A stretch of DNA of 50,093 nucleotides from a virus (taxonomy: Duplodnaviria > Heunggongvirae > Uroviricota > Caudoviricetes): the IMG/VR virus record IMGVR_UViG_3300021431_002946, positions 417,291 through 467,383 of that record, one strand, 5' to 3'. How positions within the stretch are numbered: the first letter of the stretch is position 1; every line of letters begins with the position of its first letter. Below the pieces are notes generated by a model. That model was not told the DNA's origin. It made no database searches and worked only from the letters and a program-made list of their open reading frames with translations. Below, one piece after another: positions 2,835 to 46,895 of this stretch. The position numbers and the translations under genes were made by a program.

Positions 2835-2960
2835 ATGGATGTTGACCAATATAAAATATGTAAAAAATCTTTAATATCTTTCGGTATATTTGCTTTGTGT
2901 ATTTACCTTATTGCTTTTATATAATATAATTATTATTTAAAGGTAAATACATATGTTTAA
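2835..2960 (+). CDS. 41 aa single-TM peptide (not in ORF track)
   Basis: AAAGGA RBS; MDVDQYKICKKSLISFGIFALCIYLIAFIYNNYYLKVNTYV; stop overlaps next start. Confidence 0.5.
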
Positions 2961-3693
2961 ATGTAAGATATGTGGACGACAATTTAATCAAAATTATAAT
3001 TTGAATAGACATCTACAAGATGTTCATAAATCATCACCACATTATATACAAGATGATGATCCAAATTTATATAATTTTATTTTTTATATGATAAAAAATA
3101 AAGTTAATAATATGCGATATGTTGGTGCTACTACTCAAAATTCAGTAAAGAAAAGATGGAAGAATGGTAAAGGTTATTCATTTAATAAAGAATTTACTGA
3201 TGATATAAAGTATTATGGTGTTGATAATTTTGAGTTAATTGAATTAGAAAGAAAAACATGTACTGTATATGTTGCTAAAAGATTAGAAGAAGAATATATT
3301 GATAAGTATAAACCTGAATATAATAAAAGCAGATGTGGTATAAAAATAATGTCTCCTAAAATGACATTAGCTGCTCAAAGAAAGTTAAGTAATATACCAG
3401 GTTGGTATGAAAATAATATTAATTCTTGTCGTAAATGGCAAAAGAATAATCCAAATGAAGTTAAAAAAATTGCGCAAAAAAGAAGTATAGCTGGTGCTCA
3501 TTCAAAAGGCAGACCTATTATTTGTATTGAGACTGGAATAATCTATCCTTCTTCAAATAAAGCTGCTCAGATATTAGGAATAAGTCCATCTAAAATATCT
3601 GAATGCTGTAGAGGAAAATCTAAATCTTATAAAAATCAACATTGGAAATTTGTTGATGAAATAGAGGAGAACAATTTAAATGATGAGGACTGA
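2953..3693 (+). CDS. GIY-YIG homing endonuclease-like protein with N-terminal C2H2 finger and C-terminal NUMOD1-like HTH
   Basis: CKICGRQF...LNRHLQDVH; IFYMIKNKVNNMRYVGAT..KKRW; RPIICIETGIIYPSSNKAAQILGI..ISECCRG. Confidence 0.82.
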   Translation: MFKCKICGRQFNQNYNLNRHLQDVHKSSPHYIQDDDPNLYNFIFYMIKNKVNNMRYVGATTQNSVKKRWKNGKGYSFNKEFTDDIKYYGVDNFELIELERKTCTVYVAKRLEEEYIDKYKPEYNKSRCGIKIMSPKMTLAAQRKLSNIPGWYENNINSCRKWQKNNPNEVKKIAQKRSIAGAHSKGRPIICIETGIIYPSSNKAAQILGISPSKISECCRGKSKSYKNQHWKFVDEIEENNLNDED

Positions 3694-17556: not shown

Positions 17557-18345
17557 ATGTTAACAATTCCTACAGTTTGTCCTATATGCGGAGCACCTAC
17601 ATCAATTGAAAAGAAGCATGAGACAGAAGTACTTGTATGTACAAATCTTAATTGTGGTGCAAGAGTTGAAGGTAAGATTTTGCAGTTCATTGGTCCTCAT
17701 GGTCTTGATATTGAATCAATGTCTACAGCAACAGTAAGAGACCTTATTAAACTTGGTTGGCTTACAAGAATGGCAGATATATTTACACTTAAGAACCATA
17801 GAACTGAGTGGATTACTCTTAAGGGATATGGTGAAAATTCTGTTGATAAAATCCTTGATGGTATTCCTACATCACTTGAGCTTTGGAAAGTTATTGCTTC
17901 TGCAGGTATTCCTAATGTTGAGAAGCAGACAGCAAAGCTTCTTGCAGATCATTTTGTAACTTGGGATGCATTTAGAAATGCAATTGATACAAGATATGAT
18001 CTTACAAAACTGAATGGTATTGGAGCATTGACTGCAAATACAATTCTTAACTTTGATTATACAGAAATTGATGATGTAATGAATTATATCACAATCAAGC
18101 AGCCTGTAGTTGGAGGTAAGCTTGACAATAAGAGCTTCTGCATTACAGGTAAGCTCAATAACTTTAGTAATAGAGATGAACTTGTAAAGCTTATTGAAGC
18201 TAATGGTGGTAAGATTGCTTCTGTTGGTAAGGGACTTGATTACCTCATTTGTAATGATACAAACTCTACTTCAGGTAAGTCTAAGAAAGCTAAGGATCTT
18301 GGAATTGCGGTTATCACAGAAGATGACTTCATGAAGATGATCTAA
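17557..18345 (+). CDS. ligA: NAD-dependent DNA ligase, C-terminal half (Zn finger, HhH, BRCT)
   Basis: IPTVCPICG..LVCTNLNC; GLDIESMS; LKGYGENS; GIPNV; LNGIGALTA; FCITGKL..RDEL..IEANGG..SGKSKKAKDLGI. Confidence 0.92.
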   Translation: MLTIPTVCPICGAPTSIEKKHETEVLVCTNLNCGARVEGKILQFIGPHGLDIESMSTATVRDLIKLGWLTRMADIFTLKNHRTEWITLKGYGENSVDKILDGIPTSLELWKVIASAGIPNVEKQTAKLLADHFVTWDAFRNAIDTRYDLTKLNGIGALTANTILNFDYTEIDDVMNYITIKQPVVGGKLDNKSFCITGKLNNFSNRDELVKLIEANGGKIASVGKGLDYLICNDTNSTSGKSKKAKDLGIAVITEDDFMKMI

Positions 18346-24067: not shown

Positions 24068-25246
24068 ATGCCAATAAAATTTACAAGTCCATTGGATAAT
24101 AATCAAATGGAAGAAAATGAGATTGATGAAAATCAAATAGATGAAAATGCAAAAAAGGAAAATGTTACTCTTAATACAGATGAATTAAGAAGACGAGATA
24201 TGTCTGTTGCTGATTTATTAGTTTTTGCTACAGAAAATAATTGTTCTGACTTATATATTAAATTATATTCTCCATCTTATGTTTCTAAATTTAATAATTT
24301 AATTCAATTGCCTTGTATACCATTAACAAAAGAAAGATGGCATGAATTTTATAGTTTAATATCAAATGAGTTAAATGCAGAATATGCGGTAAATAGAACA
24401 TTAGATACATCTATAGATATTGATGTGCCTGAAACAAGTGTAAATTATGGTAAAGTAGATTATTATCATTATCGTGCAAATTTTGGTTATTCAGAAGATA
24501 AAAATACAGTTATTTTCAGAATGATTAAACCTAATTTAATCAGTTTTGATAATATTAATTTTAATCCACAATGTACAAACGCGTTATATAATGCATATAG
24601 TCAAAAAACAGGTATTTGTATTGAAACAGGTCCTACTGGTTCTGGTAAATCTACAACTATGGCAGCTTGTATTAATACTTTTACAAGACCTAATGGTCCG
24701 TTAGATAATAAAGTTATTATTACTCTTGAAGATCCTATAGAGAATAAATTTGAATCTACACCTACTGTTTTAATAAATCAAAAAGAACTTGGTTCTGATT
24801 TTAAATCATTTGGTTTAGGTATTAAATCTGCATTACGTGAACATCCTAATGTAATTATTGTAGGAGAAATGAGAGATAAAGAAGTTATTTGTACTACAAT
24901 TGAAGCTGCAAGAACTGGACACTTAGTTTCTACTACGTTCCACGCTTCTGATGTTGGTGGTACTATTTCTCGTATTCTTTTCCACTTAGATAATGATAAG
25001 AACTTAGCATTTGACTTAATTTCTCAATTAAATATTGTTATTTCTCAAAGAATGTTGAAGAGAGACGATAGATATTTAGTTGATACACAATATTTATTGT
25101 TTAATAAAGCAATAAAGAGCCATTTAATTCAAATTATTGAAAATCCAAATCTTAATGTAGCTGTTGAGATAAATAATCTTATTTCGCAGCCTCAGTTATT
25201 ACAAGCTGGATTATCAAAAGACTGGGAATATCCTAACGAAATATAA
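24068..25246 (+). CDS. PilT/VirB11-family secretion ATPase
   Basis: GPTGSGKSTT, TLEDPIE, ALREHPNVIIVGEMRD, AARTGHLVSTTFH. Confidence 0.9.
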   Translation: MPIKFTSPLDNNQMEENEIDENQIDENAKKENVTLNTDELRRRDMSVADLLVFATENNCSDLYIKLYSPSYVSKFNNLIQLPCIPLTKERWHEFYSLISNELNAEYAVNRTLDTSIDIDVPETSVNYGKVDYYHYRANFGYSEDKNTVIFRMIKPNLISFDNINFNPQCTNALYNAYSQKTGICIETGPTGSGKSTTMAACINTFTRPNGPLDNKVIITLEDPIENKFESTPTVLINQKELGSDFKSFGLGIKSALREHPNVIIVGEMRDKEVICTTIEAARTGHLVSTTFHASDVGGTISRILFHLDNDKNLAFDLISQLNIVISQRMLKRDDRYLVDTQYLLFNKAIKSHLIQIIENPNLNVAVEINNLISQPQLLQAGLSKDWEYPNEI

Positions 25247-25316
25247 TTTAAAAATAATCAGTTCTCCATACTTATGGAGGTATAAACTATAAAATAATGA
25301 ATGAGGTTAAAAATAT

Positions 25317-25583
25317 ATGTCAGACTTAAATATTAGAGAAAGGTATAAAATTCTTACTGTTGAAGAAGTAAAGCAAAAGTATGAAAAATGCTCACTTGAA
25401 CAATTAAAGATTTATTTAATTGCTGTTATGAGTGAGTATACTCATCTTGATACTATCAAAGTAAGAAGGCTTGAGATCAAATCAGGTAAAAAAGATACCA
25501 ATATTTATGCTGATTATGAATTAGAAATAAAAGTAATTTTGGAGATGATTCATAATAAATTAGTTCAAAAAACTGGTTGTTGA
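25317..25583 (+). CDS. hypothetical protein
   Basis: 88 aa, GAGG RBS. Confidence 0.7.
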   Translation: MSDLNIRERYKILTVEEVKQKYEKCSLEQLKIYLIAVMSEYTHLDTIKVRRLEIKSGKKDTNIYADYELEIKVILEMIHNKLVQKTGC

Positions 25584-25584
25584 T

Positions 25585-25605
25585 AAAAGACTATTTAATT
25601 ATATA
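25585..25605 (+). promoter_or_regulatory. element-specific motif
   Basis: AAAAGACTATTTAATTATATA, core at 25591, 35 nt before ATG 25626. Confidence 0.65.
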
Positions 25606-25730
25606 ATATTGTGCGGAGGAGAAAAATGGGAAAAGATTATAAAGCAAAGTATTATAAAGAATGTTATAAAAATTCAGAAAAAGAAGCTGAATATTATAAG
25701 AATGAAGCAAAGAAATTTGAAGATCTTTAT

Positions 25731-27233
25731 AATACATCAGCCAGAAAACCCATGACCTTTTAGGTCGTGGGATGAATGGCGTCAGATTTAAAATGCCTAT
25801 ATTTTACTTAAAGACTATTAAATCAGTAAAATATATGATATAATATACATACAGGAAATCTTATTTCCGAGTCTATGAAAGGAGAAATCTGCATATATCT
25901 TACTGTAAAACAACAAGTCAAGCATCTGTCTAAGGAAGAGTATCTTACAATAAAAGAATTGTGTCATACTGCAAAAAATCTTGCTAACGAAGCTATTTAC
26001 AATGTGCGACAGTATTACTTTACTGAAGGAGAATTTCTTAAATACGAAAAGAATTATGCCCTATTGAAGAATAGTCCTAACTATAAATCATTAAATTCCA
26101 ATATGGCACAACAAATCCTTAAAGAAGTTGATGGTTCTTTCAAATCGTTCTTTGGACTTTTAAAACTGGCTAAACAAGGTAAATATACTTTTAAGGATTG
26201 CAAATTGCCACATTATCTTCATAAAGATGGATATACAACACTTGTCATAGGTTTTGTAAGACTTAATGGAAATAAGTTAATACTTCCATTTTCTAACAGT
26301 TTTAAGAAATTACATAAACCTGTTGAAATCACAATACCACCTGTATTGCTTGATAAAAAAGTAAAAGAGATTCGTATTATACCTAAAGCTAATGCAAGGT
26401 TCTTTGAAATTCAGTATATTTACGAAGCTGAATGTGTCCAAAGAAATCTTAATAAAAACAATGCACTTGCTTTGGATTTAGGGATCAATAATCTCGTAAC
26501 AGCTGTATCAAGTAATGGCAAGTCCTTCATTATTGACGATAAAAAGCTTAAATCTATCAATCAGTGGTTCAACAAGGAAAACGCTCGCTTACAGTCTATT
26601 AAAGATAAACAACATTACGGGAAAAAGACTACTAATAGACAAAAAGAGATAGCACGTGATCGTAATAGCAAAGTCAATGATTATATGAATAAAGCTGCTC
26701 GTAAAATCATAGATCACTGCATTTTAAATGATATAGGAATTCTTGTAGTTGGCTATAATGAGACATTTCAGCGTGGTAGTCGTATCGGTAAACAAAACAA
26801 TCAGAATTTTGTCAATATTCCATATGGCCAGTTGCGTAGTAAGCTTGAATATCTCTGTGAACTTAACGGTATTGTGTTTGTAAAACAGGAAGAAAGCTAT
26901 ACGTCTAAATCCTCATTTTGGGATAAAGATGATATTCCTGTCTATAATGCTGATAACCTAAAAGAATATCAATTTAGCGGTAATAGAATATATCGTGGTC
27001 TTTACAAAACAGCGAGTGGTAAAACATTTAATGCCGATGTAAATGGAGCATTAAACATTATGCGTAAAAGTAGCGTTGTGGATCTTAATATCCTATACGG
27101 TAGGGGCGAAGTGGACACGCCCGTAAGAATAAGGATTGCCTGATATTTCAGGTGGAAACTTAAATATCAAACTTCTTAAATAGAGCCGTTAGGCTCTTAG
27201 AAGCCCATTACCTTTAGGTGATGGGTAGTTCAC
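25731..27233 (+). mobile_element. IS200/IS605-family element, TnpB-only (IS1341-like)
   Basis: TTTAT just left; LE hairpin CCCATGACCT/AGGTCGTGGG (25749-25771); RE hairpin CCCATTACCT/AGGTGATGGG ending TTCAC; no TSD; no tnpA. Confidence 0.9.
25875..27143 (+). CDS. tnpB: RNA-guided endonuclease TnpB
   Basis: ALDLGINN (RuvC-I), QEESYTSK, NADVNGALNI (RuvC-III); start codon uncertain. Confidence 0.92.
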   Translation: MKGEICIYLTVKQQVKHLSKEEYLTIKELCHTAKNLANEAIYNVRQYYFTEGEFLKYEKNYALLKNSPNYKSLNSNMAQQILKEVDGSFKSFFGLLKLAKQGKYTFKDCKLPHYLHKDGYTTLVIGFVRLNGNKLILPFSNSFKKLHKPVEITIPPVLLDKKVKEIRIIPKANARFFEIQYIYEAECVQRNLNKNNALALDLGINNLVTAVSSNGKSFIIDDKKLKSINQWFNKENARLQSIKDKQHYGKKTTNRQKEIARDRNSKVNDYMNKAARKIIDHCILNDIGILVVGYNETFQRGSRIGKQNNQNFVNIPYGQLRSKLEYLCELNGIVFVKQEESYTSKSSFWDKDDIPVYNADNLKEYQFSGNRIYRGLYKTASGKTFNADVNGALNIMRKSSVVDLNILYGRGEVDTPVRIRIA

Positions 27234-27250
27234 AATAAAACTAATGAAGA
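27080..27250 (+). ncRNA. putative TnpB omegaRNA (scaffold plus flank-derived guide)
   Basis: Expected position over tnpB 3' end and RE; hairpins AGAGCC/GGCTCT and RE stem; 5' boundary is a guess. Confidence 0.55.
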
Positions 27251-27384
27251 GCTCAAAAATATAAAATCAGAATTTGCAAAATTTAAAATGCAAGTTATGG
27301 ATGTTACTAATAAAAAAGAGAAAAAGTAATCATTAAAGTTGATAATTCGTCTTTATTTCGATATATAAAAATACAATCCACAGT

Positions 27385-27445
27385 TTTTAGTATTCTGCTC
27401 AAAATACTACACAGCAGGTATGTGCTTGTAAATCATACCAACAGT
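27385..27445 (+). ncRNA. putative structured leader (H-type pseudoknot plus hairpin)
   Basis: TAGTATT/AATACTA stem, loop CTGCT complementary to AGCAG (27413-17), then GGTATG/CATACC stem. Confidence 0.4.
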
Positions 27446-27474
27446 TTACCCTACTAGAAAAGGAGAAAAAGAAT

Positions 27475-28635
27475 ATGATTGACATTTTAGACAAAAACGG
27501 ACGTCTATTAGAAAGTACTAATAAAAATGGACTTATCCGCAAATTATTGAAAGAAGGCAAGGCCAAAATAGTACAATATCGTCCGTTTGTGATTCAATTA
27601 TTAAATGATGAAAATAACTCGGAGGATATAAAAATGACAAACGACTTAAAGAAACTTATTGTAATAACAAATTCAGATAAAAGACCTGATACATCAAAAT
27701 TTAATGCAGAAATTACACAACAATGTACTTTCAATCAATTTGTAATATTAGCTACTGAAGGTTTTGAAGTAGAAAATGATACTGGATTGCTTATTGATAT
27801 TGACGGTTTAACTGAAGATTTGTATGATATGCTTAAACCTTATAAAGAGTATATAAAAGACATATATTATTTCAAATTTAATACTAGATTATCTTATTTA
27901 AATGATGAAACTATTTTCGCATTAGATGAAGAAAAACCTAAGTCTATTGAAAAAGAAATAAAACCTCTTTGTGTTAAATTAGATGATAATACTAGTACTA
28001 TGGGACACATTCTTATTTGTGGACAAGCAAGTTCTGGTAAAACTACTTTAGTCAAAAATATTGGATTACAGTTTAAAAAGAATGGTGCTGAAGTTGAATA
28101 TATTTCACCAATACCAGATATTGAAGCGCCTTTTGATACAGTAACTACTTGTAATGCTAAAATTGTTGCAGAAAGACTTGAAGCTTATCATACAGAAATG
28201 ATGGATAGATTTAAGCAAATGCAAAAAGAAAGTGTTAATAATGCAGCAAAATTAAAAAATAGACCAGCAGATAAAATACTTATTATTGATTGTTTATCAG
28301 AATATATGCTTTCTGATGATTATAAATCTGTTGATATTATTAAAAATACATTAGGTAGCATTGCTAGATTAGGCAGAGCTGCTAGAATTATCTTAGTATT
28401 AGTAACGCAAAGACCATCAGGTTCTATTGTTTCTACTTCACTTAAAGATAATATGCAAGATCTTATTATAACTGGTGCATTCAGATCTGATATGTCAGTA
28501 CTTATGTTTGGTGAAGATGTAGAATCATCAAAAACCATTCCATTAGGTAAAGCAACTTATAGAAATCCTTTTATTCAATCTGATACGTCAGATTGTTATG
28601 TATTATTTAATATTGATAATGTAGCAACATTATAA
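27475..28635 (+). CDS. PLMP/RRXRR domain fused to FtsK/SpoIIIE-like ATPase
   Basis: ILDKNGRLLEST..IRKLLKEGKAKIVQYRPFVIQLL; GHILICGQASSGKTT; IARLGRAARIILVLVTQRP. Confidence 0.8.
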   Translation: MIDILDKNGRLLESTNKNGLIRKLLKEGKAKIVQYRPFVIQLLNDENNSEDIKMTNDLKKLIVITNSDKRPDTSKFNAEITQQCTFNQFVILATEGFEVENDTGLLIDIDGLTEDLYDMLKPYKEYIKDIYYFKFNTRLSYLNDETIFALDEEKPKSIEKEIKPLCVKLDDNTSTMGHILICGQASSGKTTLVKNIGLQFKKNGAEVEYISPIPDIEAPFDTVTTCNAKIVAERLEAYHTEMMDRFKQMQKESVNNAAKLKNRPADKILIIDCLSEYMLSDDYKSVDIIKNTLGSIARLGRAARIILVLVTQRPSGSIVSTSLKDNMQDLIITGAFRSDMSVLMFGEDVESSKTIPLGKATYRNPFIQSDTSDCYVLFNIDNVATL

Positions 28636-28644
28636 ATGTAATCA

Positions 28645-28676
28645 GCCAGGAGATGTAAAAATCTCCTGGTTTTTTA
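28645..28676 (+). terminator. intrinsic terminator
   Basis: GCCAGGAGAT/ATCTCCTGGT plus T tract. Confidence 0.85.
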
Positions 28677-28678
28677 AT

Positions 28679-28698
28679 AAAGACTATTTAATAATATA
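28679..28698 (+). promoter_or_regulatory. element-specific motif
   Basis: AAAGACTATTTAATAATATA, core 28684, 40 nt before ATG. Confidence 0.65.
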
Positions 28699-28723
28699 AA
28701 AAAAATAACAATGGAGGAAAATT

Positions 28724-29263
28724 ATGGCAAATGAAAAATTTTTAGATGCCTTTAGAGCTTTAGATACAGAATTAAAAGATCAAGGCTCTACTGTTCTTGA
28801 GTATGAGAATTCATTAAAAGAAGGTAGTGTGGAAAAAGAAAAGCTTAAAGTATGTAGAATTATGAGAAATTATATGAGTCATAATGATACTACATTTTTA
28901 ACTGCTTCAAATGAGCAAATTAAGTTTTTAGAAGCAGAAACAGAAGAAGTATTAAAAAGAGCACATCTTGTAAAAGATGAAATGAAAAGAGTTAAGACAT
29001 TTAAGGCAACTGCACCTATCAAAGATGTAATTGCGGCTCTAGACAAATTTCCAGTTGTGCCTATTGAAACTAAAGCTGGAATTTATTTAGTAGATAAGGA
29101 TATTTTGGTTCATCAATTAGCTGGTGGAGCAAAGAAGATTGCTGTACCTACTAAATTACCTAAATATAAGACAACAACTAAAATGACCAAGATAGAGGAT
29201 CTTACTGAAGGTACTTATATTGTTACCGAGAAAGATGCTTATATTGGTATTATTATTGTTTGA
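28724..29263 (+). CDS. HEPN-like domain plus degenerate CBS-like domain
   Basis: RNYMSH (RX4H) in helical N-domain; LVKDEM..TAPIKDVI..PVVPI. Confidence 0.55.
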   Translation: MANEKFLDAFRALDTELKDQGSTVLEYENSLKEGSVEKEKLKVCRIMRNYMSHNDTTFLTASNEQIKFLEAETEEVLKRAHLVKDEMKRVKTFKATAPIKDVIAALDKFPVVPIETKAGIYLVDKDILVHQLAGGAKKIAVPTKLPKYKTTTKMTKIEDLTEGTYIVTEKDAYIGIIIV

Positions 29264-29273
29264 GGAAATGATT

Positions 29274-29681
29274 ATGAATAAAAAAATTATTGCTATATTA
29301 TTAATATCTACAATGTTATTTGTTACTGCGTGTTCAAATAATATAAATAAACCTAATCCTATACAAGAAACAACTATTACTCAAATTATAAATAAGAATA
29401 AGTTATATGATTGTACTTGGATATATAAGGCTAAGGATGGTTCTAGTGCATCTTTTATATTTAATGAAGACGGAACTGGCGAATATACATCAGGTGGTAA
29501 AACTGGATCTGAAAGTGCATATTTTACAGAAATTACATGGACATTAGAAGATAATAAATTAAGTGTAACTCGTAGAGGTCCTTATACAGATAATTATATT
29601 ATTTGTTTTGAAGGAGATAATCTTATTTTAACTAATGAAAATAATATTTCTACAACATATATTAAAATGGAAAAGAGATAA
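29274..29681 (+). CDS. lipoprotein
   Basis: MNKKIIAILLISTMLFVTAC lipobox; W..F.EDGTG beta-rich domain; GAGG RBS favours 29274. Confidence 0.75.
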   Translation: MNKKIIAILLISTMLFVTACSNNINKPNPIQETTITQIINKNKLYDCTWIYKAKDGSSASFIFNEDGTGEYTSGGKTGSESAYFTEITWTLEDNKLSVTRRGPYTDNYIICFEGDNLILTNENNISTTYIKMEKR

Positions 29682-45224: not shown

Positions 45225-46895
45225 ATGAGCATAATTGTTGTTACAAACGACAAAAAAATACCTAAGGAGTTAAATGACTTTACTGTTGAAAAGTGGTCTG
45301 CTAAAGAATTTTTAGAGAACGCTTATTCCGATGATGGTATAGACGTAGAAGAGTCATTATGGTATCATACAAATATTTTAACAGAAGAAGTATATAATGC
45401 ATTAAAAGCATTTATTGAGAATGGTATTGATATTGTATATTACCGTTTTGATACAGATCCTGCGCCTAATTTTGATGTTGAAGAAGCAGTTCTTCAAGAT
45501 CCTGAAAAACCAGCAGGAGCAGAGCCTGAAGTAGTTCCAAAGCCACAAGCTGAAGTGGCTCCAGCTACTCCAGAGCCAGAACCTCAAATTGAAATAGTTC
45601 CTCCTGCTCCTACAATTAATCCTGAAGAAACAATCTCAACTAGACCTGGATCAAATTATCCTACAGCACCTCAAGTACCTGTTCAACCTCAAGTTGTTCA
45701 GCCTCAGGCGCCTGTAGTACAGAATCCAGCTCCAGTAGAACCTGAACAACCAAAGCCTCAGGTTTCAGATCCATTCAAATTTAATATTCCTCAGATTTCA
45801 ATTCCAGGAATTACAACACCAGCTGCTCCTCAAGCTCCTGTTCAGCCTCAAGCTCCACAGATAGTTCCTCAGCAGCCTCAGATACAGCAAGCTCCAATTG
45901 TTCAGCAACCTGTACAACCACAAGTACAAGTTCCTGTTCAGCAACCTGTTCAGCAACCTGTACAGAATAATGAAAGACCTAATAATTCTGGAATGAGAAT
46001 TAAGATTGCTGGTGGAGATATGTTTAATGGTAATAATCCTGTTGTAAATCCAGAATCAGCAAATCAGTTAGAGGATATAACAGAAGTAGTACCTAAGTCT
46101 GTAGAGAATAATGGTGCAGAAGTAATTATATTTGGTAGCTCAAAAGGTGGTACTGGTAAGACCTTTACTGCTTGTATGAGCGCATATCAATTTGCAAAAG
46201 ATCATCCAAATCTTAGAGTTGCATTAGCAGACTTTGATATTATTGATGGTCAGGTTGCTATTACTACAAACCAAGTTGGTCCTACAGTTCAGGATTTCTA
46301 TATTGATTTTGTAAATGGCAATAAATCATTCGGTGATTTATCTAAGTACAAGGCAACATCTGCAAAATTTAGTAGAAATATTGATTTCTACCTTGCGCCT
46401 GCACAAGATATTCCAGAAATTACAAATGATAATGAATTCTGGAGAACAATATATAATCTTTTAATTAAGAATTATGATGTTGTATTCTTTGATACAGGTA
46501 TTGATTATATGGGTAAAGAACCTATTAGTGAGCTTTATAAAGTTGCAGATAAGATTATTATTACTTGTAATACATCTATCAACTCTGTTAAATCTATTAT
46601 TAAGCAATTACTTACTTTAAGTGGTAAGAGAGCAAATAATATTTTTGACGCAGATGACGATATTCTCAATAGAATTAATATTGTTTTAACTCGTGTATCT
46701 GATGATTATGAAGATGTAAATAATGAAGTTGTTAACAGATTGAGTAAATACGCTCCTATTATTGCTGCATTTGGTAATATTGATGGACTTGTTTATAGAG
46801 TTCAGTGGGGTGGTGCTTGGCAGTTAATTGATAGTCAGGAAGATATTGTTGACAATCTTAGAAGAATAACAGATTTAACAAGTGAGGATGAGTAA
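45225..46895 (+). CDS. ParA/MinD/CpaE-like ATPase with long Pro/Gln-rich linker
   Basis: SSKGGTGKT deviant Walker A, LADFD, YDVVFFDT. Confidence 0.85.
   Translation: MSIIVVTNDKKIPKELNDFTVEKWSAKEFLENAYSDDGIDVEESLWYHTNILTEEVYNALKAFIENGIDIVYYRFDTDPAPNFDVEEAVLQDPEKPAGAEPEVVPKPQAEVAPATPEPEPQIEIVPPAPTINPEETISTRPGSNYPTAPQVPVQPQVVQPQAPVVQNPAPVEPEQPKPQVSDPFKFNIPQISIPGITTPAAPQAPVQPQAPQIVPQQPQIQQAPIVQQPVQPQVQVPVQQPVQQPVQNNERPNNSGMRIKIAGGDMFNGNNPVVNPESANQLEDITEVVPKSVENNGAEVIIFGSSKGGTGKTFTACMSAYQFAKDHPNLRVALADFDIIDGQVAITTNQVGPTVQDFYIDFVNGNKSFGDLSKYKATSAKFSRNIDFYLAPAQDIPEITNDNEFWRTIYNLLIKNYDVVFFDTGIDYMGKEPISELYKVADKIIITCNTSINSVKSIIKQLLTLSGKRANNIFDADDDILNRINIVLTRVSDDYEDVNNEVVNRLSKYAPIIAAFGNIDGLVYRVQWGGAWQLIDSQEDIVDNLRRITDLTSEDE

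Follow-up and report, generated by a model that had tools for sequence, protein, structure and literature searches.

The locus raises the question of why the N-terminal PLMP/RRXRR domain of the OMEGA nuclease IscB should stand at the head of an FtsK-like ATPase gene, behind a structured leader and shortly ahead of a second possible start codon. The window analyzed here (the whole stretch of 50,093 nucleotides) is the end part of a 467-kb circular record, G000, with direct terminal repeats, 27% GC, and 56 tRNA genes, most of them in one ∼11-kb array at 278-289 kb. A Pfam search of the 82 large ORFs outside the window, at a threshold of 1e-8, recovered a TrwB-type coupling protein and a VirB4-like ATPase, along with three sigma-70 proteins and RNA polymerase subunits, as well as adhesins and a type I-E CRISPR-Cas set, while none of these ORFs matched a virion family; PilT-like and TcpE-like genes lie inside the window (Pfam). 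Searches of G000 for Gp23, terminase, and sheath returned no match, and the Gp23 control likewise matched nowhere. Given these conjugation-type genes and the lack of a virion family, G000, which is filed as a virus, is on its incomplete annotation more suggestive of a giant conjugative element than of a tailed phage. The element occurs in gut runs of sheep, goat, and cattle, and at least half of its words are present in 5 of the 20 listed runs, one of which is a possible source. G000 also encodes GGDEF/EAL proteins and a PARP-domain protein, and an NAD-dependent DNA ligase in the window appears to be split across 1656-2747, 2953-3693, and 17557-18345, in the order adenylation/OB part, GIY-YIG endonuclease gene, and, 15 kb off, Zn/HhH/BRCT part.

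The fusion ORF (27475-28635, + strand, 386 aa) holds the only RRXRR match in the whole of G000. The initial annotation had read its first residues as an IscB-type PLMP/RRXRR domain with neither RuvC nor HNH after it, and HMMER against Pfam bears this out: the match to RRXRR is real, spanning residues 4 to 52 at 31.1 bits for the whole protein and 34.4 bits for residues 1 to 53 (cut-off, 25) and ending at profile position 52 of 174, while FtsK_SpoIIIE passes in the same ORF at 33.9 bits. A family profile searched against the PDB retrieved PLMP domains of IscBs, including that of OgeuIscB, at ∼1e-17, its C-terminal part leading to TcpA, EccC, and FtsK, and a motif scan of the fusion protein found no RuvC-I, CxxC, or paired-His motif. 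The PLMP domain, reportedly named by Altae-Tran in 2021, is delimited by Pfam, the PDB profile, AF2, and conservation to residues 1 to 45 (27475..27609, +); its motif position reads LLES, the literal P-L-M-P being absent and the Met-Pro lost. AF2 models it as a small beta-sheet with one helix (strands at 2-5, 30-34, and 39-42, helix at 18-26; pLDDT, 80 to 88), followed by a disordered linker at residues 46 to 56. The fusion as a whole is predicted to form three domains with low-confidence linkers between them (mean pLDDT, 84; pTM, 0.59).

The middle one of these domains modifies the annotated order, in which the PLMP domain was grafted onto the ATPase: the two are indeed joined in one protein, but a small alpha/beta domain (residues 54 to 150; 27634..27924, +), which the initial annotation did not mention, lies between them. 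Identified by AF2 (pLDDT, 83.8) and by homology to a ParA/MinD-like protein at 45225-46895, at whose N terminus it recurs (E value, 7e-17), this domain is receiver/flavodoxin-like, with fold matches that are weak throughout (best Z, 6.0; CpaE 4dn6, Z of 5.9; many receiver domains at Z of 5 to 5.9; none at 8 or above). It had no match in Pfam, PHROG, or the ESM Atlas. Orthologs of the 45225-46895 protein occur in the related elements G001 to G003, and its receiver-like plus ParA/MinD layout resembles the CpaE/TadZ architecture.

The remainder of the protein (27967..28635, +) is a P-loop domain of FtsK/TcpA fold according to Foldseek (top matches, TcpA 6o1w at E of 1.5e-11 and FtsK 2ius at 4e-11), the PDB profile search, and a motif census. 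Walker A is intact (GQASSGKT, residues 183 to 190), and the RLGRAAGI and QRP motifs are kept in many relatives of the domain. Translocase ATPases need the Walker B Asp-Glu as catalytic base, and here Walker B reads IIDC (D272-C273), without the catalytic Glu; just 4 of 44 aligned rows have the Asp-Glu, and 11 of the 44 no longer have Walker A. The description as an FtsK-like ATPase thus stands for fold and Walker A but not for an active translocase, which with the Glu missing the domain probably is not. A separate TrwB-type coupling protein is encoded in G000, and the fusion is unlikely to be the DNA pump of the element; our guess is that it has an accessory function close to the conjugation genes, in nucleotide binding or in assembly. 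FtsK-like paralogs at G000:C1:37619-38725, 250996-252028, and 225480-226103, one of them in pieces, all lack PLMP.

A decayed remnant of an inserted IscB would also place PLMP codons in front of a gene, and the initial annotation had itself allowed for a scar confined to this contig with no conserved structure upstream. We find instead a family: RRXRR is present in all of six relatives at 94 to 41% identity, and from an HMMER scan of representatives at 50% identity, where the best 150 were listed and 43 were hand-picked for long or N-terminal matches, it was found in 26 of the 43 (25 above cut-off), comprising 24 with the ATPase, 1 fragment, and 1 further protein (P0135). A fusion HMM added 6 more, and the fusion is present in at least 24 clusters at 50% identity, its leader being conserved in a 44%-identical homolog. 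P0135 (191 aa) consists of three tandem PLMP domains and nothing else (RRXRR, 89 bits in 3 stretches).

Under the neutral alternative, repeated recent insertions and deletions of IscB elements would have left in-frame PLMP pieces, with only the internal Met54 in use. Insertion of IscB elements is indeed seen in these genomes, in one case into a fusion gene; the gene is dispensable (see below), and the fused/unfused label is scattered on the tree. Against it, the frame is open, and pairwise identity in 23 fusions averages 62% for PLMP, a figure that may be inflated by a search profile that contained PLMP, compared with 26% for the middle domain and 27 to 29% for the ATPase. The nearest relative of a fused PLMP is another fusion in 22 of 26 cases when compared with 42 IscBs, Met-Pro survives in 1 of 26 fusions versus 40 of 42 IscBs, and T15, R17, G19, R22, and K29, with the basic helix, are retained together with PFTIQL; neither RuvC remnants nor a HEARO core accompany the fusion. 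The available part of the OgeuIscB structure report has the PLMP motif contacting both RuvC and RNA (PMC9640706), and because of the RuvC contact the loss of Met-Pro fits a domain that has dropped RuvC packing and kept another function. On these comparisons the fusion is an old, conserved family and not a scar, and we regard the neutral account as highly improbable.

The family nevertheless has a mobile history. In a quickly built tree covering 34 fused and 17 unfused proteins, the starred branches require three or more gains or losses of the fusion, from which the graft is judged to have happened, or to have been lost, more than once. Unfused relatives (P0007, P0080, P0082, P0108, and P0160) begin at the position of Met54, and some of these may be gene calls at the internal start. 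Full IscBs occur in the same element family (L002 and L136), and G003 encodes both a full IscB and a separate 308-aa PLMP-ATPase (locus L137) that is 24% identical to the window's protein and belongs to another ATPase subclade. Scans of viral-contig proteins gave no match, and the phage and plasmid collections contained no full-length relative. A PLMP scan found at least 80 loci, and among the matches listed 79 had RuvC-I, 1 was incomplete, and none was a fusion; ATPase-motif scans gave 4 viral and 5 genome matches, none of them a fusion. The phage collection held 3 PLMP matches, and the ESM Atlas contains clusters of RRXRR-only proteins of 52 to 63 aa, one mostly viral, which may be stand-alone PLMP genes or IscB fragments.

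Comparison with occupied and empty sites delimits what moves. Locus L002 encodes a counterpart with 44% protein identity, the same gene neighborhood, and an interrupted fusion gene. In the complete relatives G001 and G002, which have no RRXRR match, homology to L002 ends 4 nt past a promoter-like motif, where the L002 leader begins, and in G002 it resumes right after the stop codon; because the break spans leader and gene, the two come and go as one unit. In L002 itself the fusion gene is interrupted (L002:2776-5988) by an IS605/TnpB element within which lies a complete IscB together with its HEARO RNA. Absent from G001 and G002 and broken by this nested IS in L002, the fusion gene is dispensable. 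The TnpB in L002 has 77% DNA identity to that of an IS605-type insertion (Pfam OrfB_IS605) just upstream of the window's fusion (25735..27233, +). The latter is missing from L001, a locus of 99% identity in which a 66-aa ORF would be split by it, and since it is absent from so close a relative, it is by this comparison a recent insertion unrelated to the fusion; the TnpB-free locus rules out a link between the two. The promoter-like motif, CTATTTAAnnATATAA, is specific to the element, with 7 copies on the + strand and 0 on the - strand of G000, a record that encodes RNA polymerase subunits of its own in addition to the three sigma-70 proteins; copies lie upstream of 25626 and at 28680-28700 in the window and at L002:2305-2322, and no good copy precedes the window's fusion leader. 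An intrinsic-terminator-like hairpin lies 3' of the fusion gene (28644..28671, +).

The second start is where the initial annotation had placed it, with GGAGG at 27621-27625 and the in-frame ATG of Met54 at 27634 (together 27621..27636, +), and an amino acid census, rare codons, and the starts of unfused proteins make it a likely one. The protein pattern E-x-x-x-M, a proxy for an internal Shine-Dalgarno sequence (SD) plus Met, follows PLMP in 20 of 24 clusters across very different linker lengths (shuffle mean, 2.0; maximum, 8 of 2000; mean of other windows, 0.5). Glu stands at -4 in 19 of the 22 fusions with Met, and the stricter pattern E[DGEAV]..M is found in 17 of 24 fusions versus 0 of 44 IscB controls. 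At the DNA level, both readable loci of the window's clade (the window and L002) use the codons TCG GAG GA, although in G000 1.2% of the Ser codons are TCG and 13.5% of the Glu codons are GAG. That these rare codons are kept while four-fold sites agree in only 26 of 50 cases indicates selection on the SD and ATG at Met54, whose use as a start remains putative. The PLMP frame is itself strongly conserved and has its own SD at start 1. Locus L137 and its subclade (P0101, P0111, P0121, and P0132) have no Met in the post-PLMP linker. Contigs from RNA runs X8 and X9 end at 27642 and 27648, near the internal start, and contigs of this kind cannot show starts.

The leader upstream of start 1 (27385..27474, +, about 90 to 100 nt) was delimited by its identity to that of L002, which is 74 of 100 positions, compared with 58 of 100 for the 100 nt further upstream and a shuffle maximum of 59. 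All elements described in the initial annotation are present, namely, TAGTATT/AATACTA at 27388-94/27403-09, CTGCT at 27395-99, AGCAG at 27413-17, and GGTATG/CATACC at 27417-22/27434-39, but the CTGCT/AGCAG pseudoknot does not hold up: L002 lacks it (at best 3 Watson-Crick pairs), and 4.8% of shuffles yield a loop complementarity of 5 bp by chance. Stem 1 (27388..27409, +; 7 bp with an 8-nt loop) has a pair probability of about 0.6 in the window, and its L002 counterpart shows one compensatory change from A-U to G-C, while ViennaRNA prefers another register there (p of 0.07). A pairing of the 5' strand of the leader with the TACTAG block, proposed by RNAalifold, was rejected, being near the minimum free energy (MFE) in the window and 9 to 10 kcal/mol worse in L002.

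The most conserved element of the leader is a different helix, ACAGC-N8-GCTTGTAA (27411..27431, +), found in all three of the distinct fusion leaders that are readable (the window, L002, and L137). The motif was defined on the window and L002 and loosened in loop length and by one T after L137 had been seen; in the loosened form, ACAGC...GC(U)UGUAA, it is present in 3 of 3 leaders, in 1 to 2 of 5000 dinucleotide shuffles of each, and in 1 of 535 G000 ORF leaders. The L137 leader has a perfect TTACAGC/GCTGTAA helix, and the motif lies 32 to 43 nt from the start codon at all three loci. Stem 2 (GGTATG/CATACC; 27417..27439, +) crosses this helix, so that the two would form either an H-type pseudoknot or alternative folds; in the ungapped register with L002 it has two compensatory pairs and two broken outer pairs, and its predicted pair probability without pseudoknots is 0.05 to 0.1. 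Downstream follows the TTACCCTACTAG block with the SD AGGAG of start 1 (27446..27465, +), a 12-nt block identical in L002. Scans with DNA patterns for further leaders gave 11 chance matches and, in a later round, 0 matches.

Some of these features resemble the 3' end of omegaRNA. The data do not support reading the leader as omegaRNA proper: HEARO has no Rfam match in 25000-29500 at E values up to 5 and none in the L002 fusion leader, while the IscB in L002, as a positive control, scores 99.9 bits. A related pattern, ACRG...CYG.TTA, is nonetheless found upstream of IscB in 43 of 56 distinct regions (shuffle mean, 0.7), and in 18 hand-picked IscB tails the ACRG-type helix is crossed by a second, covarying stem in the same layout as in the window's leader. 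Among omegaRNA 3' ends we observed a subtype with a covarying H-type pseudoknot beyond the end of the HEARO model, in the last 70 nt before iscB (L015, L017, L019-L023, L025, L030, L033, L037, L039, L040, L051, L074, and L085). A pseudoknot descriptor was discarded as proof, as it had been fitted to the window, found 16 of 46 IscB tails (5 with weak A/T pairings) and 1 of 535 G000 leaders, and missed L002. The parts of the IsrB report available describe PLMP as stabilizing a terminal hairpin that contains the SD and contacting the SD, and its authors suggest expression control (PMC9581776); for OgeuIscB, the domain is described as recognizing terminal hairpins (PMC9640706, available portion). 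The ACAGC helix is likely the counterpart of the base of the omegaRNA terminal hairpin and the predicted docking site of PLMP.

PLMP might instead have been kept as a protein-protein or folding module, the leader being only an efficient 5' UTR inherited from IscB. The likeness of PLMP to the N-terminal domain of IF3, noted in the accessible text of PMC9581776, is in keeping with this, as is the behavior of a covariance model of the 18 IscB tails, for which the window's leader was the top match in 63 kb, though at no better than E of 0.013, on the SD part alone with the structured core skipped; on the L002 leader it gave E of 0.4 to 0.6. The ACAGC...GCUGUAA helix, however, goes beyond the SD and recurs before a distant fusion, and the residues retained are the basic residues of the helix, so we consider a purely protein-directed role unlikely.

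If PLMP does bind the leader, the effect need not fall on the ribosome. Leader folding energies are ordinary (z of -0.91 to +0.66, and -0.08 to -0.93 in a second calculation). Several folds compete, a setting in which binding could control transcription by attenuation, or RNA stability or processing; PMC10734217, in the part available, relays a proposed role for PLMP as a regulator of transcription termination at the last loop of omegaRNA. Yet the only terminator-like sites are at the end of the gene, with none in the leader, and the conserved block abuts the SD, which makes such control rather improbable. In the predicted fold the AGG of the SD is unpaired at 0.03, ranking 11th among 255 SD-bearing ORFs with a median of 0.67, and this depends on the stretch folded: with folding ended at the AUG, the occlusion of the SD is weaker (0.58/0.18/0.13). 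Nucleotides 27432-27438, on the 3' side of stem 2, pair alternatively with the start-codon region (27474-27480) in the MFE fold, and in L002 it can pair with the SD.

The idea of an RNA tag carried on the ATPase-fold protein, in which PLMP would hold the leader or a processed piece of it as a tether or localize the mRNA, draws on the same conservation of PLMP and leader. The disordered linker and the pTM of 0.59 suggest, in the model, a freely tethered domain, and the three PLMP domains of P0135 fit a general RNA-binding module. What is seen of the RNA points the other way: contigs from RNA libraries cover the leader in 3 of 4 runs (one, X9, sharing the possible source sample) at depths of 3 to 15, which as contigs cannot prove transcription, and they extend upstream and into the coding region, with no discrete abundant RNA. 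The location of the motif, 32 to 43 nt from the start codon at all three loci, also speaks against a tag, which we rate as unlikely.

A conserved PLMP, a co-inherited leader resembling a terminal hairpin, and a retained native start together make negative translational feedback the simplest reading. We hypothesize, giving it about an even chance, that the locus is a domesticated, graftable PLMP-plus-leader cassette for such feedback with long and short isoforms, both the binding and the starts being predicted. An IscB element would have left the last ∼60 to 100 nt of its omegaRNA and the first ∼45 codons, in frame, before an existing gene for a receiver-like plus FtsK-fold protein, with the old SD and ATG kept. 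Selection would then have retained the RNA-facing and core residues of PLMP and dropped the Met-Pro that packs against RuvC. The long protein would bind its own mRNA at the ACAGC...GC(U)UGUAA helix and at the SD hairpin close by, and so damp initiation at start 1, while Met54 would yield an isoform without PLMP that is the same as the ancestral protein, perhaps through coupling to ribosomes from start 1, which we consider because the internal SD is likewise predicted to be partly paired. The ATPase domain would bind nucleotide or help in assembly, with little hydrolysis, as an accessory of the conjugation/pilus region. We extend this more tentatively, at somewhat less than even, to the proposal that the omegaRNA 3' end makes up, with the first ∼45 iscB codons, a portable and self-contained feedback cassette that mobile elements grafted more than once onto unrelated genes; with the start of the target kept, a regulated tagged isoform would be produced alongside the native one. 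The RNA specificity of an isolated PLMP is uncertain because the contacts of OgeuIscB PLMP with RNA are mainly sequence independent according to the available text (PMC9640706).

Measured against known systems, the fusion is closest to the IscB/IsrB OMEGA proteins (PF14239; PDB 7xht, 7utn, and 11hx; PMC9640706 and PMC9581776), sharing the PLMP sequence (profile E of 1e-17), its N-terminal position directly behind an SD-containing hairpin region, and the ACRG...CYG helix base within ∼70 nt upstream of the start. Unlike them, it lacks RuvC and HNH, the bridge helix, a guide, and the HEARO core (a scaffold of 200 to 400 nt); it has also lost Met-Pro, is fused to an unrelated ATPase fold, and has a likely internal second start. 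Reuse of PLMP with a different partner is seen in IshB (PLMP plus HNH) and IsrB (PLMP plus RuvC) in the part of PMC10734217 available, but those partners are nucleases within IS200/605 elements, whereas the fusion partner is a non-nuclease with no surrounding transposon. TcpA, FtsK, and EccC-EssC (PDB 6o1w, 2ius, and 4lya) resemble the fusion ATPase in fold and sequence; in contrast to them, the fusion model has no visible membrane anchor or gamma domain, and the Walker B Glu is missing. T4 gp32, ribosomal proteins, and IF3 are translational autogenous repressors, and the proposed logic, a protein binding a structure by its own ribosome-binding site, is the same, except that in the fusion the domain that binds RNA would form, with its site, a separable cassette derived from a transposon. 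TldR keeps its guide RNA and DNA targeting, whereas the cassette would keep only the RNA-gripping headpiece and a guide-less leader. The likeness to TldR lies in the domestication of an OMEGA protein for regulation, TldRs being described in the available text as domesticated TnpB regulators (10.1101/2023.11.30.569447).

In full-text literature, to the extent available, we found PLMP only together with RuvC and/or HNH (PMC9581776, PMC9640706, and PMC10734217) and no description of nuclease-free PLMP fusions, of which the supplements of the paper that named PLMP may list some. The nuclease-free PLMP-ATPase fusion would be a variant of OMEGA domestication and of translational autoregulation, both known kinds. 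These fusions isolate PLMP and its putative RNA site, with the residues that contact RuvC naturally lost, so that the proposed role in SD contact and autoregulation can be put to a direct test using a peptide of 45 aa and an RNA of 100 nt. If confirmed, the system would represent a mode of transposon domestication that uses neither nuclease nor guide, and its compact pair of RNA and protein could serve as a translational switch. If the cassette reading is true, elements of this family would carry a natural plug-in RNA operator/repressor pair derived from a Cas9 ancestor, and autoregulation would be the native job of PLMP.
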